A stretch of DNA of 64,000 bases from Promethearchaeota archaeon (GTDB taxonomy: Archaea; Asgardarchaeota; Lokiarchaeia; Sigyniarchaeales; SOKP01): positions 384,124 through 448,123 of the forward strand of contig JBHLLT010000001.1 in NCBI GenBank assembly GCA_048938855.1, given 5' to 3'. Position 1 is the first letter of the stretch. The number at the start of each line of letters is the position of its first letter. Shown here in pieces: positions 4,396 to 40,602 of the stretch. The translations under genes were made by a program, and so were the position numbers. Below the pieces are notes generated by a model, which worked only from the letters and a program-made list of their open reading frames with translations, did no database searches and was not told the DNA's origin.

Positions 4396-6198
4396 CTACA
4401 TGCCCCACCAAGGATGCGTTGTCTTACGCATTAAAGTAATAAATTCTCTAAGAGCCTGTTTTTGATCTGTGGTTAATTCATCAATAAATTTTCCCATTAG
4501 TTGCCTTACATGAGATTCAGGAACTAAAACAAATAAGGTTTCATCTTTTTCTAAATCTCGCCCAATTTCGATACCACGAATAGAAATAGCTACTTCTGAA
4601 TCTTTAGGTGCTTTATCTAGTGTCTGTCCTTTATCTTGGATTTGATGTACTCTTCTAACTCGTTTGCCTTTATCAGTAATTAATTGAACTTTTGGATATA
4701 AAGTCCCTGCTTCGACGTAAACTCCAAAAACAGCAGGATCTGAATTTCGAAATATAAATTCAGGAAACATTTTAATTTTAGCGGGTAAAATCAGCTCACT
4801 TAAACCTTTTGCGGTATCTTCTGCTTTTCTAGTTTCTGCATATTCTATATAATCCTCTAATAATCGATAGATTACATTATTAGTGAAGATCCTGATGTTA
4901 TCCTTAATAGCTTGTTCATTGGCTTCAGGTAAAATGGGTACATTAAAACCTAGTACTGTTGCAGAATATGGATCCAACTGTTTTACTATATTTGCATTAA
5001 TAATATCTTCTTTCTTTATCGGACCTACATCAGCTATGCTAATTTTTACTCCATTTTTAGTAAAATGATTTTCAAGAGCTTCAAGAGAACCTAAAGTATC
5101 CGCTTTTAATACGACCCCAGCTTTCTCAGTTTTTATCCTAATACTTTCTACTTCAGATTCAATTTCGCTATAGATTTGATCTTCTTCAGAGGGATCCATT
5201 ATTCCTCTAAACGGAGAACCGGCTACCACATCTTCGATATTTGGAGCAAGAATTTTAATACCCGCAGCGGCACTTATAGTATCAACAGAATCAAATTTTT
5301 GTCTTGGATCTCGAATTTCATCTAAAGGCTTTGGTATTAGTAATGCTCTTACTTTAGATTTAATAGGTTTTTCTAAACCACCAACAATAAACTCGTCCCC
5401 TTTATTAATAAGTCCGTCATAAATAAGAACATCCATAGTTTTTCCCTGACCCTTTTCTTTCTTAACTTCTAATACAACTCCTTTAGCGGATCCTTCAGAA
5501 TACTTAAGATTTGTAGTTAAATATTGTTGAACTAATCCCATCAAAATCATGAGAAGTGTCGATATTCCTTCACCTGTTTTTCCACTTGTTGGTACTATTG
5601 CTATTTTTTTAGTAAAATCTTTTATTTTATCATAGCGATCAATTCCCTTAAAACCCTCTTCTAAAAAGTTACCTACAATCTGTAATAGCTTTTCATCTAA
5701 AAAATCTTTTACATGCGGCTTTTGAAAATTATAGGAATCAAGAAAATCAGCATCTGTTTTTGATTTCCATCCTGAAATTCTATCTATCTTATTTGCTGCA
5801 ATTACAAATGGTGTTTTCCTTTCTCGTAGTATCCTAACAGATTCCCAAGTTATTGGCATTGTCCCCGCTGTAACATCTATTACTAGAATTGCTATATCAG
5901 CTACAGCACCGCCTCTTTTTCTCAGATTTAGAAAGGCTGCGTGGCCTGGAGTATCTACAACTAAAATACCAGGAAGTTTAATTTCTTTTTCAGCAAATTC
6001 TTGTTTAGATTTTTTCAAAAATTCTCTGATATCTTTAGTTGGGAAATAAGAAGCACCTATATGTTGTGTAATTCCTGCAGCTTCTCTTTGCTGTACTACT
6101 GTACCTCTTATATAATCTAGGATAGTCGTTTTACCATGGTCAATATGACCAAGTATACACACAATCGGTGCTCTAATTATTTTGTTTTCTTCAGTCAT
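4396..6198 (-). CDS. infB: Translation initiation factor aIF5B (IF-2)
   Basis: GHIDHGKTT, GITQHIGA, DTPGH, KADTLGSLEAL, C-terminal WWGM. Confidence 0.97.
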   Translation of the reverse strand: MTEENKIIRAPIVCILGHIDHGKTTILDYIRGTVVQQREAAGITQHIGASYFPTKDIREFLKKSKQEFAEKEIKLPGILVVDTPGHAAFLNLRKRGGAVADIAILVIDVTAGTMPITWESVRILRERKTPFVIAANKIDRISGWKSKTDADFLDSYNFQKPHVKDFLDEKLLQIVGNFLEEGFKGIDRYDKIKDFTKKIAIVPTSGKTGEGISTLLMILMGLVQQYLTTNLKYSEGSAKGVVLEVKKEKGQGKTMDVLIYDGLINKGDEFIVGGLEKPIKSKVRALLIPKPLDEIRDPRQKFDSVDTISAAAGIKILAPNIEDVVAGSPFRGIMDPSEEDQIYSEIESEVESIRIKTEKAGVVLKADTLGSLEALENHFTKNGVKISIADVGPIKKEDIINANIVKQLDPYSATVLGFNVPILPEANEQAIKDNIRIFTNNVIYRLLEDYIEYAETRKAEDTAKGLSELILPAKIKMFPEFIFRNSDPAVFGVYVEAGTLYPKVQLITDKGKRVRRVHQIQDKGQTLDKAPKDSEVAISIRGIEIGRDLEKDETLFVLVPESHVRQLMGKFIDELTTDQKQALREFITLMRKTTHPWWGM

Positions 6199-36550: not shown

Positions 36551-36702
36551 ACCAATTTTATATGATAACCTAAAATAATTATTTATAAATTTTAAATTTT
36601 ATTAGTTCTGGTTAGTTCTTTTTGAAGAGCATCTTTATAATAAAAAATAATTTAAATCTTATTTACATAATGTTAATAAAAACATATTAATTGAGATTAT
36701 AA

Positions 36703-37620
36703 ATGTTCAAAGAGAAATTTAGCGAAGGAGTCATTAGTGCTAAGCAATTTGATAGAGAAGATATTGAATATATTTTAAAGAAAGGCAAAGAAATGATTAA
36801 TATAAAGAATTCCAATCTTCTTCAAGGAAAAATTTTAGCTACACTATTTTTTGAACCCTCTACTCGAACTCGTCTTAGCTTTGAATCTGCGATGTATAGA
36901 TTAGGTGGAAGTGTAATTGGATTTCATTCTGGAGATGTGTCTTCAATAAAAAAAGGCGAAAGTATCGCTGATACAATAAGAACTGTAGAAAATTATAGTG
37001 ATTGTATTGTTATGAGGCATTCGCTTGAAGGGGCAGCACGAATGGCATCTAAATTTTCTAAAGTTCCTATAATTAATGCAGGTTCTGGAAGTGGAGAACA
37101 TCCAACTCAAGCCTTATTAGATCTTTTAACGATTACAGAGGAAGTTGGTTCATTAGATGGTTTAAATATCGGTTTGATGGGAGATTTAAAATATGGAAGG
37201 ACAGTTCATTCCCTTTCAATTCTTTTATCGAATTTTGATATAAATGTTTATTTTATTAGTCCTATTGAATTGAGAATGAGAAATCGAGATAAAGATTTTC
37301 TACAACAGCAACAAGTCAAATATAAAGAAATCACTGACTACCGAAAAATTCTAAATATTCTAGATGTACTTTATATGACTCGGATTCAAAAAGAAAGGTT
37401 TGCTGATTTAGAGGATTATGAAAAAATAAAAGAGTACTATATTTTCAATGAAGATGACCTTAATGATACAAAAGATAATTTCAGATTGTTGCATCCCCTT
37501 CCAAGAATCACAGAAATTTCTCCATATGTTGATAGTTCCGAAAAAGCAATTTACTTCAAACAGACTTATTATGGAATCCCTATGAGAAAGGCTCTCTTAG
37601 CAGAATTGATGACAGATTGA
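36703..37620 (+). CDS. pyrB: Aspartate carbamoyltransferase catalytic subunit
   Basis: FFEPSTRT, HPTQALLD, GDLKYGRTVHSL, HPLPR. Confidence 0.97.
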   Translation: MFKEKFSEGVISAKQFDREDIEYILKKGKEMINIKNSNLLQGKILATLFFEPSTRTRLSFESAMYRLGGSVIGFHSGDVSSIKKGESIADTIRTVENYSDCIVMRHSLEGAARMASKFSKVPIINAGSGSGEHPTQALLDLLTITEEVGSLDGLNIGLMGDLKYGRTVHSLSILLSNFDINVYFISPIELRMRNRDKDFLQQQQVKYKEITDYRKILNILDVLYMTRIQKERFADLEDYEKIKEYYIFNEDDLNDTKDNFRLLHPLPRITEISPYVDSSEKAIYFKQTYYGIPMRKALLAELMTD

Positions 37621-37656: not shown

Positions 37657-39609
37657 TTATTGAATAGAATCTTTTAGTAAAACAGCACTAATTTTGGATT
37701 CAATAACACTTTTTAGAGAATTTAGTAAAGTTTTTTCGTTTCTTTTTGTTTCTAGAGTAAACAAAGATCCTCTGTCGAAAATCTTTTGAAATTTTTTGAA
37801 TAACGCAATTTTTTTATTAAAAGAAAGATTGGACGTATCTCTTATTAAACTTGAAGAATAGCTTCTCATTTTCGTGTTATATTGTTTATCCCCATCATAC
37901 AGTTGATTGTTTAAATAAGAATCATAATGAGGCTGGCTTAGAACAAAATTTTTATCATGAGTGTTATTTTTTTCCATTATTATCATCTTCATTAGATTAA
38001 GTATTCTTAGGGCAAAAGATTCGCTATTTTCTGTTTTATCAAGTTCAATTCCACAATGATTACAAATAGCTTCATTAAGACCAAAAAAACTAATAGATTT
38101 TAAAGCATTTTTTAATATTTCGTTTTTATCACTTTTCAAAAGATTTGAAACAATGAAATTCCATTGTTTTAGTGAATTTAGTTTCTTCTGTACTAATTTT
38201 TCTTTATAATTGAACAATTCAAAAACAAGATTAATTTTTTCTTGTAAGAGTTCTAAAAATTTTTCATCATTTTGCTTAGCTTCTTCGGATATGCTGTGTA
38301 AGTTAATTAGAATTTTATCTAAGATTACCTGATCTATTTGCGGATTTGCTATTTGAATTATGGATGAATTAAAGAAATCTGAATTGGACTTATTATATAA
38401 AATAACATTATTTTTCAGATTATTAGTAATTAGATTTAGAATATTTTGATTTCGAGAATATTCGAATATGAAAAAAGGTGTGACACCGTTTTTACATCTT
38501 GAATTTATTGACTTAAGAAATGCTTCATCAATAAATCTTTGATCTGCAGGACACTCATCGTAACTAAACTCAAGAGTTACAGAAGATTTTATCTTATCAT
38601 TATTATTATTAAAACTAATAATTTGTGATGTTAAGATTGGGAAATCAGAAGATATTGCTTTTGTCAATGAAAATCTAGAAAGGAATTGGTTATTAAAATT
38701 CCCTAGTACTAAATCCTCAGAGCAAAATTGTCTCAAATTATACAGCAGATCTGAGAGAAAAATAATTAATTCTGAATGGCCTAGCTTCTCCTTTAATTTA
38801 TTTTTTAAATCGTTATGTTCATTAAGTAGATAATCCATTATTGTTTTAGAATCGATGTATATACTTAAAGGTCTTAAAGCCCAATAATTTAAATGCAAAA
38901 GAGCAATTTCTCCAGATAAATATAAATCAGCTAAATTTTTAGGAATAAGATTAAGAAGTAAAAACTGCTCTGAAACATCAGAACCTAATTTTTCAATAAA
39001 TGTAACAGGATTTATATCTATAGATTTAGATTCAAATAATTTAAATACTTCAAAAGGGGGCGTTCCCAGTCGAGTTAATTTATGCCTTACTTCTTCTAAA
39101 CCATTTTCTAGTAAAATTGCATTAATATATTCCCGCATTAATGGAGCAGTTAGATATTCTATATTTGTCTTAGAAAGACGTTCTTCTACTTCACGAGCAA
39201 TTTGTCGAGCCAAATATTGCTCCAATTCTCCCTCTGTTACTAAATATTCCTCAATTTTTCTAGTATCAAAAAGTTCCTTAGAATATTTTGAAGTTCTGAT
39301 CATTTTAGTTTGATATTGCTGATCTATAATCTCTTCAATAGATAAGATCTTATCGATAATTTGCGCTCCTAAAATTGTAATTGTATAACCTTCTTCAGAA
39401 GAATCTATCAATTCACTTTTTTTTAGCGTGTTTAAATGAAATGACAAATTTACTGAAGAAAGATCGTTTCCTAAAACCTCTTTTTGTATCACTGAAAATG
39501 GCAAAGGTGTTTGCATGTTTTTCAGCCTTTTTAGAATATCGATTCTAACCTTCTGACCTAAAGTTTTTAGTTGTTTTTCTAAGAGATTAGGATTTTTGTC
39601 GGTATCCAC
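37657..39609 (-). CDS. ArsR-type wHTH + ATP-cone + degenerate class III ribonucleotide reductase (NrdD)-like protein
   Basis: wHTH (RIDILKRL...LSFHLNTL...Y.IT..G), ATP cone (IRTS...FD..KI...IAREVE...LTAPLMREYINAILLE), NrdD-like TRLG.P, ADLYLSGEI and GLNEA. No glycyl-radical motif. Confidence 0.75.
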   Translation of the reverse strand: MDTDKNPNLLEKQLKTLGQKVRIDILKRLKNMQTPLPFSVIQKEVLGNDLSSVNLSFHLNTLKKSELIDSSEEGYTITILGAQIIDKILSIEEIIDQQYQTKMIRTSKYSKELFDTRKIEEYLVTEGELEQYLARQIAREVEERLSKTNIEYLTAPLMREYINAILLENGLEEVRHKLTRLGTPPFEVFKLFESKSIDINPVTFIEKLGSDVSEQFLLLNLIPKNLADLYLSGEIALLHLNYWALRPLSIYIDSKTIMDYLLNEHNDLKNKLKEKLGHSELIIFLSDLLYNLRQFCSEDLVLGNFNNQFLSRFSLTKAISSDFPILTSQIISFNNNNDKIKSSVTLEFSYDECPADQRFIDEAFLKSINSRCKNGVTPFFIFEYSRNQNILNLITNNLKNNVILYNKSNSDFFNSSIIQIANPQIDQVILDKILINLHSISEEAKQNDEKFLELLQEKINLVFELFNYKEKLVQKKLNSLKQWNFIVSNLLKSDKNEILKNALKSISFFGLNEAICNHCGIELDKTENSESFALRILNLMKMIIMEKNNTHDKNFVLSQPHYDSYLNNQLYDGDKQYNTKMRSYSSSLIRDTSNLSFNKKIALFKKFQKIFDRGSLFTLETKRNEKTLLNSLKSVIESKISAVLLKDSIQ

Positions 39610-39918
39610 TTTAATTATTAACCCTGTTCTAATTTGTTAATTTTGTATAACATAATATTATATCTTTTATATATATAAAAATTTAGAAATATTCTTCATG
39701 TTCTGTGGATAAGGATAATACGTGGGTGATATTAAACCACAATTTAAAAGAATTGATTTATATCTCAATCATTTTCATATTTTTGGCATTCAAATTTCTA
39801 AATTTTAATTCAATTTTTTAACTATAAAAACTGGACTACAAATAGCTTTAATAATTATATACCAATTTTTTAGATATTAACTAATTTTAAAGTATAGGTT
39901 GATAACAGAATCTTAAAA

Positions 39919-40602
39919 GTGTATTTTATGAAGCCTAATGACATTAATAGAAAAATTAGATTAGGAACAATAGGATTGTGGACTATTTTTGCCATTGTTA
40001 CTATAGTAATGATCGCTCTAGTTTTTGGTCAAGTCTTTATGCCTTATGATTATTGGATTCCTATTATTCCTATTGGAGTATTATTAATATTATCAATTAT
40101 GGCTACAATTGTAGATTTTAGATCTGAGCAGAGGATTAAAATGGGGATAATTGGAGCATGGACCATATTTTTAATAGTTGTTGTTGTAATGGTTGCTCTT
40201 ATCTATGGTGGTATTTTCACCTCTGAAGAATATTGGATTCCTGCAATTCCAATTGGCACATTAGCTGTGCTAGCAATTATTGCCACCATTAGTGAATATG
40301 TGAGAGGAGAGATAAGATATTGTCATAAATGTGGAAAACGATTTGATAAAAAATGGGATTATTGCCAAGAATGTGGTGCTAGGGTACTCTTGGCGTGTCC
40401 TACATGTGGAATGAAAGTTAAGGGAAATCCCAAGTACTGTTATAAATGTGGAACTGATTTAAGTGAAATCAAGATCGCTCCAGTTTATAGACCCCCTGCA
40501 AAACCAAAAATAGATAATCACGCTAATTTCTGTCGTGAATGTGGGAGTATCAAAAATCCGGAAGCTAAGTATTGTGGTTATTGCGGCGCTGCTCACGCCT
40601 AA
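39919..40602 (+). CDS. Membrane protein with a duplicated 2-TM unit and C-terminal double zinc ribbons
   Basis: Two ~60-aa repeats (IG.WTIF...YWIP.IPIG.L), then six CxxC motifs. Confidence 0.8.
   Translation: MYFMKPNDINRKIRLGTIGLWTIFAIVTIVMIALVFGQVFMPYDYWIPIIPIGVLLILSIMATIVDFRSEQRIKMGIIGAWTIFLIVVVVMVALIYGGIFTSEEYWIPAIPIGTLAVLAIIATISEYVRGEIRYCHKCGKRFDKKWDYCQECGARVLLACPTCGMKVKGNPKYCYKCGTDLSEIKIAPVYRPPAKPKIDNHANFCRECGSIKNPEAKYCGYCGAAHA

Follow-up and report, generated by a model that had tools for sequence, protein, structure and literature searches.

What does a protein do that joins a DNA-binding domain to the remains of an anaerobic ribonucleotide reductase (RNR)? The question is raised by a gene in a 64,000-nucleotide (nt) stretch of the genome of a Promethearchaeota archaeon (contig JBHLLT010000001.1, positions 384,124 to 448,123), hereafter the window, which is AT-rich with about 26-35% G+C. 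The coding sequence lies on the minus strand (37657..39609; positions are those of the window unless a contig or locus label, C.. or L.., is given) and runs from a GTG start codon to a stop codon at 37657-37659. It encodes 650 amino acids (aa) that comprise a winged helix, an ATP-cone-like domain and a non-catalytic body related to the class III RNR NrdD. A first-pass annotation had described the product as an RNR-derived pseudoenzyme repurposed as a transcription factor and had called it an archaeal analog of bacterial NrdR. We conclude that the protein is almost certainly a conserved, selected and non-catalytic NrdD paralogue with a DNA-binding domain. Its function is probably that of a nucleotide-sensing transcription factor for nucleotide-precursor genes, with pyrB and/or the nrd genes as targets.

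The N-terminus carries an ArsR-type winged helix-turn-helix (aa 14-88; 39346..39570, minus strand), in agreement with the first-pass annotation: Pfam DUF7347 (PF24038) matched at 37.4 bits, above its cut-off of 27.6, and was accompanied by weaker HTH_20 and ArsR-type matches. NCBIfam gave an ArsR/SmtB match below cut-off and NrdD matches that were far sub-threshold. In the recognition-helix motif SSVNLSFHLNTLKK, residues N54, S56, F57, H58, L59, L62 and K63 are invariant, as is the pattern SFHL..LKK. The ATP-cone-like domain that follows (aa 103-185; 39055..39303, minus strand), of the 'IRTS' type, was delimited from a PF03477 match below cut-off and from its alignment to the cones of archaeal true NrdDs. 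The remainder comprises the N-terminal helical region of an NrdD core (aa 186-252; 38854..39054, minus strand) and a remnant alpha/beta barrel (aa 253-650; 37660..38853, minus strand) that includes the finger loop (38332-38394) and a QPHYDS loop (37918-37935). Sequence and structure comparisons both confirmed that this body is NrdD-like. Pfam NRDD (PF13597) matched partially (2.5e-15, aa 433-637), and hhalign of a 29-member family profile to the genome's own NrdD gave a probability of 98.4 (aa 112-629 against 38-617 of 711), in an alignment that extends from the cone through the last barrel strand. Using an AlphaFold2 (AF2) model (predicted local distance difference test, 75.8; predicted template modelling score, 0.71) as the Foldseek query, we retrieved top matches that were all class III RNRs (S. 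thermophilus, T. maritima, P. copri and T4; E 4e-15 to 1e-8). The window protein is homologous to these NrdDs (T4 1H7A, T. maritima 4U3E, P. copri 8P23 and S. thermophilus 9D3X) and has the same ten-stranded alpha/beta-barrel fold of the RNR and glycyl-radical-enzyme type, with the cone-to-core junction TRLG.P, a GLNEA block and an INLPR-like strand in common.

The catalytic features of NrdD did not survive with the fold. The segment YLSGEIALLHLNYWALRPLSI (aa 230-250; 38860-38922) aligns to HLYGDIHIHMLRYFDLRPFCQ of true NrdD, and QPHYDS (aa 559-564) aligns to the QPAES loop, in place of TPAE(S); the motifs quoted in the first-pass annotation were exact. Where the genome's own NrdD reads HLYGDIHIHML, RPFC, a CC finger loop, QPAES, CPHC...CPQC and RITGYY, the window protein reads YLSGEIALLHL, RPLS, FNSSIIQ and QPHYDS and then reaches its C-terminal end. 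The HxHD motif column has thus become ALLH and TPAES has become QPHYD, the Cys that follows RP(F/L) in true NrdD is a Ser, and the finger loop has a conserved Asn414-Ser415 where true NrdDs carry the thiyl-Cys motif [GC]C[RA]. Also deleted is the NxN flap, which true NrdDs have as ENAN..NPE. The sequence stops with the last barrel strand, and neither the CxxC...CxxC Zn ribbon nor the RxxGY glycyl-radical loop is present, as had been claimed. In P. copri NrdD, HxHD and the loop 577-581 keep the substrate triphosphate in place, and the NxN flap acts as the lid of the active site (PMC11226230); HxHD, the TPAE-type loop and the flap are all gone in the window protein. We also considered the dead active site as a sensor of nucleoside triphosphates in the canonical binding mode and found this unsupported for the same three losses. 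Judged by its lack of a thiyl Cys, second active-site Cys, HxHD, NxN flap, TPAE loop, Zn ribbon and RxxGY, the window protein cannot reduce nucleotides, and RNR chemistry is, on the evidence of the sequence, largely refuted. Someone might still argue for an enzyme, with RNR or some other radical or non-radical activity, given the many family members that databases name 'anaerobic ribonucleoside-triphosphate reductase', the invariance of barrel residues such as HCGIELD and QPH, and a Bathyarchaeia subgroup that retains a finger-loop GCR Cys and the Zn ribbon. Yet the window protein is without the thiyl Cys, Gly loop, Zn ribbon, HxHD and NxN flap, and the radical Gly is an Ala in the GCR subgroup itself. 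We give a surviving enzyme, or else a decaying pseudogene, hardly any credence.

A pseudogene is ruled out by the conservation of the gene. The open reading frame (ORF) was kept intact in all 30 loci of the window's archaeal family, and the ratio of non-synonymous to synonymous substitution rates (dN/dS) was 0.18-0.37 overall in pairwise comparisons and below 1 in every domain, save in a noisy short C-terminal stretch of one pair. The start codon position is the same in orthologues; that of the window gene is GTG (39607-39609), and orthologous starts in L004-L032 are nearly all GTG or TTG, with ATG in one of the 22 shown. The proposal of an RNR-derived pseudoenzyme therefore stands: the fold is kept, the tested catalytic features are absent and selection is purifying. 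Constraint varies along the protein. The cone is the most conserved part (mean pairwise identity 0.86, 47 of 83 columns invariant, dN/dS 0.00-0.34), followed by the N-helical region (0.80) and the winged helix (0.71), and the barrel parts have mean identities of 0.62, 0.39 and 0.43, with HCGIELD and QPH among the residues that are invariant. The winged helix, the cone and the helices after the cone are thus among the most constrained regions, a pattern that fits a ligand-sensing DNA binder built on a scaffold.

The genome is equipped for ribonucleotide reduction without this gene. An intact true NrdD is encoded on contig C81 (471.6 bits) and an NrdG2 activase on contig C66 (153 bits), the sole match for that family to pass its cut-off. 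NrdD works with an NrdG activase whose gene is often close by. The window protein differs from NrdD in this respect as well as in its added N-terminal winged helix, for no activase is nearby: the window contains no NrdG, as the first-pass annotation had noticed. A class II-type RNR lies on contig C63, from position 6039 onward (L047:1447-3210, open at the 3' end of the locus), and has an N-terminal ATP-cone (27 bits), RNR_Alpha (114 bits) and a B12-RNR (RNR-II) insertion domain; a whole-genome search with PF02867 missed it. In a genome with NrdD, NrdG2 and a class II RNR, the window gene is not needed as an enzyme. We also observed a stand-alone 141-aa ORF on contig C34 (322614-323039; L050:1342-1767, minus strand), ~61 kb before the window, that resembles an NrdD cone and cone-to-core junction (…LITSPLIREIVNVHLLQNGFEQERLQYTRVGLPVYD…) with a weak ATP-cone match (18 bits). 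Possibly this is a further protein made from a fragment of NrdD.

The family is larger than the Lokiarchaeia, the scope that had been assumed for it. A search of 90% clusters returned 491 close homologues of ~650-665 aa with the same architecture, many of them named 'anaerobic ribonucleoside-triphosphate reductase' or 'HxlR regulator', and a profile search of 50% representatives returned 202 clusters at E<=1e-30. Within the phylum (301 genomes searched), the full-length short form was present in 64 of the 68 genomes of the window's family, and seven other families carry 'long' forms of 710-780 aa that match over the winged helix, the cone and the N-terminal core. A scan with a long-form profile found relatives in at least 586 species-representative genomes or loci, mostly of Bathyarchaeia, with the remainder from Methanomethylicia, Hecatellales and Jord-, Atabey-, Hel-, Odin- and Baldrarchaeota. 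Thus, the family spans the TACK and Asgard archaea.

Catalytic features appear to have been lost in steps across this range. In a FastTree phylogeny of the cone-plus-core columns, used for topology only, all winged-helix proteins form one clade against the true NrdDs; the most NrdD-like long forms are basal, and the short clade to which the window protein belongs is deeply nested, with long branches. The long forms have the four Zn-ribbon Cys invariant, with no conserved Gly and no conserved finger-loop Cys. Among 117 family representatives, the thiyl column holds Cys in three (versus four of four true NrdDs), the second active-site column holds Cys in one, and at the radical Gly column 28 have Gly and 53 a deletion. 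The Bathyarchaeia subgroup mentioned above (L097, L100, L105, L106, L112-L114, L116, L131, L135, L146, L149 and L159, all Bathyarchaeia-labelled) keeps the finger-loop GCR and, in all members except L149, the Zn ribbon. It reads FSR(V/M)SAK(H/Y) where true NrdDs read SRITGYY, with Ala for the radical Gly, and RxxGY occurs in none of its members. Four sequences of the subgroup were read individually (L097, L106, L131 and L146): in two of them Ala occupies the radical Gly position, and in the other two the loop is diverged or truncated. Judged by these residues, the subgroup looks like an intermediate state of inactivation. Separately, four double-cone NrdD-like proteins of ~690 aa (P0234, P0244, P0249 and P0262) cluster with the true NrdDs, but their aligned sequences contain neither Zn ribbon nor Gly loop. 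Truncation, a split gene or a further inactive lineage may account for them.

What the protein might regulate we infer from gene neighbourhood alone. The gene lies tail-to-tail with pyrB, as first annotated, which encodes the catalytic chain of aspartate carbamoyltransferase (36703..37620, plus strand; TIGR00670, 362.6 bits versus a cut-off of 236.95), and the two stop codons are 36 nt apart. This convergent pyrB is found in all 29 loci of the window's family. In seven other Asgard families, 12 of 22 loci, from five of the seven, have pyrB next to the gene or no more than ~1 kb away, either convergent or preceding the gene on one strand; the closest co-directional cases abut (L036) or leave a gap of 43-48 nt (L041 and L076). 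A wider scan of 80 loci placed pyrB within the 3-kb flank in 26, including those of Bathyarchaeia and Odin-, Baldr- and Atabeyarchaeia. In 20 of the 80, all labelled Bathyarchaeia or Thermoproteota, a true nrdD lies downstream of the gene on the same strand, often with an ORF of glutaredoxin fold (PF00462; 18 of 80 loci overall) in between, and a convergent pyrB often comes after nrdD. The Asgard arrangement of the gene and a convergent pyrB looks like this Bathyarchaeia cluster minus the glutaredoxin-like gene and nrdD. In one Asgard genome (L036), pyrB precedes the gene and a convergent true nrdD follows it. The other neighbours in the window are information-processing genes (PCNA, TFS, L44e, S7 and RNA polymerase). 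A 227-aa double-zinc-ribbon protein (39919-40602, plus strand) is divergent from the gene in some genomes of the genus only and, for this reason, is probably not a functional partner. The pyrI gene is far from pyrB in this genome (contig C45:46654-47166; L051:1480-1992), and in other lineages with the winged-helix gene the usual arrangement is divergence from pyrB and not a pyrBI operon.

Linkage to nrdD raises the possibility of a strictly RNR-specific repressor, a functional analogue of NrdR that senses ATP/dATP and controls nrd genes only, with pyrB adjacency as functionless synteny. The RNR descent of the protein and its kept cone agree with this, as do the one-strand order of gene, glutaredoxin-like gene and true nrdD in 20 of 80 loci, the convergent nrdD of L036 and a near-invariant block of ~125 nt upstream of nrdD that has no RNA structure or Rfam match. 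Furthermore, the winged-helix family could fill the role of NrdR because NrdR is rare in archaea (PMC9110341). Against such exclusivity, nrdD is on another contig or locus in this genome and in 29 of 29 relatives, and no box is common to the nrdD, nrdJ and own promoters. The gene is also kept beside pyrB where no true NrdD exists. In three genomes of the same order, one of them closed and of 4.4 Mb, the sole NRDD match is the window-type gene, and two further, less complete genomes of the order have no NRDD match whatever. All five have a class II RNR, and pyrB is next to the gene in four; in the fifth, the gene stands at a contig end. NrdD thus cannot be a requirement for the function, although the class II RNR could be the target in such genomes. 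Overall, we regard control of nrd genes alone as rather unlikely. The designation 'archaeal analog of NrdR' is accordingly borne out in part: the link to nrd in the 20 Bathyarchaeia-labelled loci and one Asgard genome favours it, and the missing operator, the missing Lys-Arg pair of the cone (see below), pyrB as the sole conserved partner in this genome and its family, and the persistence of the gene in genomes that have no NrdD do not.

Dead paralogues often regulate their active relatives. The window protein could, in the same manner, act as a pseudoenzyme partner that forms a heterodimer with NrdD or docks on aspartate carbamoyltransferase through the NrdD dimer surface and tunes the enzyme, with the winged helix used for protein contacts. 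This general precedent, the high conservation of the N-terminal helical region and the position of the gene next to nrdD or pyrB would all be accommodated. The gene persists, however, where NrdD is absent, its neighbours vary, and the recognition helix is canonically ArsR-type with invariant residues. We consider such a partner role improbable.

Candidate sites for a DNA-binding regulator were sought in the promoters. The upstream regions of the gene, pyrB and nrdD each contain near-invariant blocks among relatives whose proteins differ by 10-50%. The gene's own promoter has a TATA-like element, AAATTTTTATAT (39673..39684, minus strand), that starts 75 nt before the GTG and is conserved in orthologues; the genome contains 28 copies of this generic promoter element. 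The block AATATCACC(C/T)ACATATTATC(C) (39713..39733, minus strand), ~30 nt upstream of the TATA element, is kept in most of 22 orthologous upstream regions and has itself as its best genome-wide match. It is a candidate autoregulatory site. Between the TATA-like element and the start codon of pyrB, the block TTACATAATGTTAATAAAAACATATT (36663..36688, plus strand) is a candidate operator that is unique in the genome, near-invariant within the genus only and more variable in the rest of the family. A second conserved intergenic block, TAATTATTTATAAATTTTAAATTTTATTAGTTCTG (36575-36625), lies in the divergent L44e/pyrB promoter region and is conserved family-wide. The nrdD block (~125 nt; L001:3715-3840, contig C81) is nearly invariant across 21 family genomes and surrounds a TATA-like element beginning 162 nt ahead of the nrdD start codon; such conservation of sequence would imply a long leader or dense protein-binding sites. 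We detected no consensus RNA structure or covariation in the nrdD block and no Rfam match at any of five loci, the nrdD leader included. The block has no motif in common with the other promoters beyond the generic TATA element. Genome-wide scans with the conserved promoter blocks matched only the sites themselves, and the pyrB-pyrI intergenic regions of other lineages yielded no cross-lineage motif. A 12-mer common to the gene's own and the nrdD promoters was rejected as an operator, since it is the generic TATA element and is found upstream of unrelated genes.

Taken together, the data suggest a model in which an ArsR-type winged helix was fused ahead of the inner ATP-cone of an NrdD paralogue. 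Radical chemistry would then have been lost, with the thiyl Cys, the second active-site Cys, the substrate-phosphate motifs and the NxN flap, and in the window's lineage the whole Zn-ribbon and glycyl-radical domain would have gone as well. The barrel may survive as a dimerising scaffold, and the cone with its adjoining helices could sense an adenine or deoxy nucleotide. A ligand-driven change in shape or oligomer could then control DNA binding by two winged helices, as in NrdR. Candidate targets in the window's lineage are the adjacent pyrB and possibly the gene's own promoter and the distant nrdD; in Bathyarchaeia they are the downstream glutaredoxin-like gene and nrdD.

Several observations weigh against this model, and the first of them concern the cone. 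Its PF03477 match (aa 103-174) scored 16 bits, below the cut-off of 25.8; for comparison, the genome's own true NrdD scored 18.3 bits and long-form relatives 27.9-31.4 bits. The segment nonetheless aligns column for column to the cones of archaeal true NrdDs and is, as estimated by eye from the alignment, ~45% identical to the inner cone of an NrdD that has two, with a joint score of 70 bits for the pair. The same 'VRTS' kind is seen in the cone of single-cone archaeal true NrdDs and in the inner cone of double-cone NrdDs, whose outer cones often have the canonical K-R. A search of the PDB with the cone alone (phmmer) returned chance matches only. In the cones of EcRNR and of StNrdD, from S. 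thermophilus, a hairpin Lys-Arg pair (K9/R10 and K19/R20, respectively) adjoins the nucleotide phosphates (PMC12662201). Mapped through a true archaeal NrdD, these columns are T106-S107 (IRTSKY) in the window protein, with R105 and K108 flanking them and K111 nearby. ATP/dATP binding is therefore plausible, not assured, and the cone that the first-pass annotation called well conserved is so within the family but reads Thr-Ser at the canonical pair. The region matching the specificity site of NrdD is the least conserved part of the protein, and aa 180-217 have low confidence in the AF2 model despite their high conservation. One could thus conceive of a DNA binder whose cone and barrel no longer sense nucleotides and serve as an oligomerisation scaffold or bind another ligand. 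The absent Lys-Arg pair, the sub-threshold cone, the loss of HxHD, the NxN flap and TPAE, and the poor conservation of the specificity-site region would suit it. The cone is, however, the most conserved part of the protein, with dN/dS down to 0.00-0.06, which is hard to square with a mere linker, and basic residues (R105, K108 and K111) flank the hairpin. We consider a protein blind to nucleotides very improbable.

Further points against a nucleotide-sensing regulator of pyrB and nrd genes concern its targets. No operator common to the candidate promoters was found; GTTAATAA, which occurs in the pyrB, nrdD and own promoters, was rejected as one because the match was post hoc and the genome has 503 copies. 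The commonest arrangement with pyrB, tail-to-tail, is one that a regulator and its target do not usually have, and an ancestral cluster of the gene, the glutaredoxin-like gene, nrdD and pyrB may have left it as a relic. Likewise, a tandem duplication could have left the gene next to nrdD.

We found no paper in the literature on an architecture of winged helix, cone and NrdD core. The closest parallel is NrdR, the bacterial repressor of nrd operons that consists of a Zn ribbon and an ATP-cone (PMC9110341, PMC12176259). Both proteins join a DNA-binding domain to an RNR-type cone, and in Bathyarchaeia the neighbourhood of the winged-helix gene links to nrd genes. They differ in that the DNA-binding domain of the window protein is an ArsR-type winged helix and not a Zn ribbon, and in size, the window protein having 650 aa, of which ~465 residues are NrdD core (aa 186-650), and NrdR ~150 aa. 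The window cone is without the Lys-Arg pair, the Asgard partner is pyrB and not nrd, NrdR-like boxes, which are palindromic and lie upstream of nrd operons, were not found, and there is no homology outside the cone. The N-terminal 90 residues match ArsR/SmtB regulators (DUF7347, HTH_20 and HTH_5), including the S..S.HL..L recognition helix; the window protein is set apart by the absence of metal-site motifs and the fused RNR-derived body of ~560 residues (aa 89-650). Other regulators were derived from enzymes of the pathway they control. PyrR is a phosphoribosyltransferase-like regulator of pyr genes. NrtR is a Nudix-related transcription regulator (PMC2330246). As is proposed for the window protein, a metabolic-enzyme fold is reused in NrtR and PyrR as an effector sensor that regulates the same pathway, and such proteins are routinely mis-annotated as enzymes. 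Their folds and ligands are different; the donor here is a radical RNR and its partner an ArsR-type winged helix.

A broader interpretation, which we offer as a tentative possibility, is that the family is a pan-archaeal (TACK and Asgard) master regulator made from a dead RNR, which would co-ordinate pyrB/pyrI with nrdD, nrdH-like genes and nrdJ by reading the nucleotide pool. Such a regulator would reuse the allosteric parts inherited from the enzyme, namely the cone and perhaps the former specificity site, with the winged helix as output. Bacteria split such control of pyrimidines and deoxyribonucleotides between NrdR and PyrR. To our knowledge, the regulation of nrd and pyr genes in archaea is largely unknown, and it becomes testable through a candidate regulator that is widespread and has a clear gene neighbourhood. 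The findings also bear on annotation, as hundreds of archaeal genomes carry the winged-helix gene with the name 'anaerobic ribonucleoside-triphosphate reductase'. In some genomes, such as the closed 4.4-Mb one, this gene is the sole NRDD match, and metabolic reconstructions would wrongly credit them with a class III RNR. What is new here is the spread of the family through TACK and Asgard archaea, its position as a single winged-helix clade beside true NrdD, its linkage to pyrB and nrdD and its persistence in genomes without NrdD. With its stepwise loss of catalysis, the family would offer a clean case of an enzyme turned regulator, in which allosteric sites would have outlived the chemistry they once controlled.

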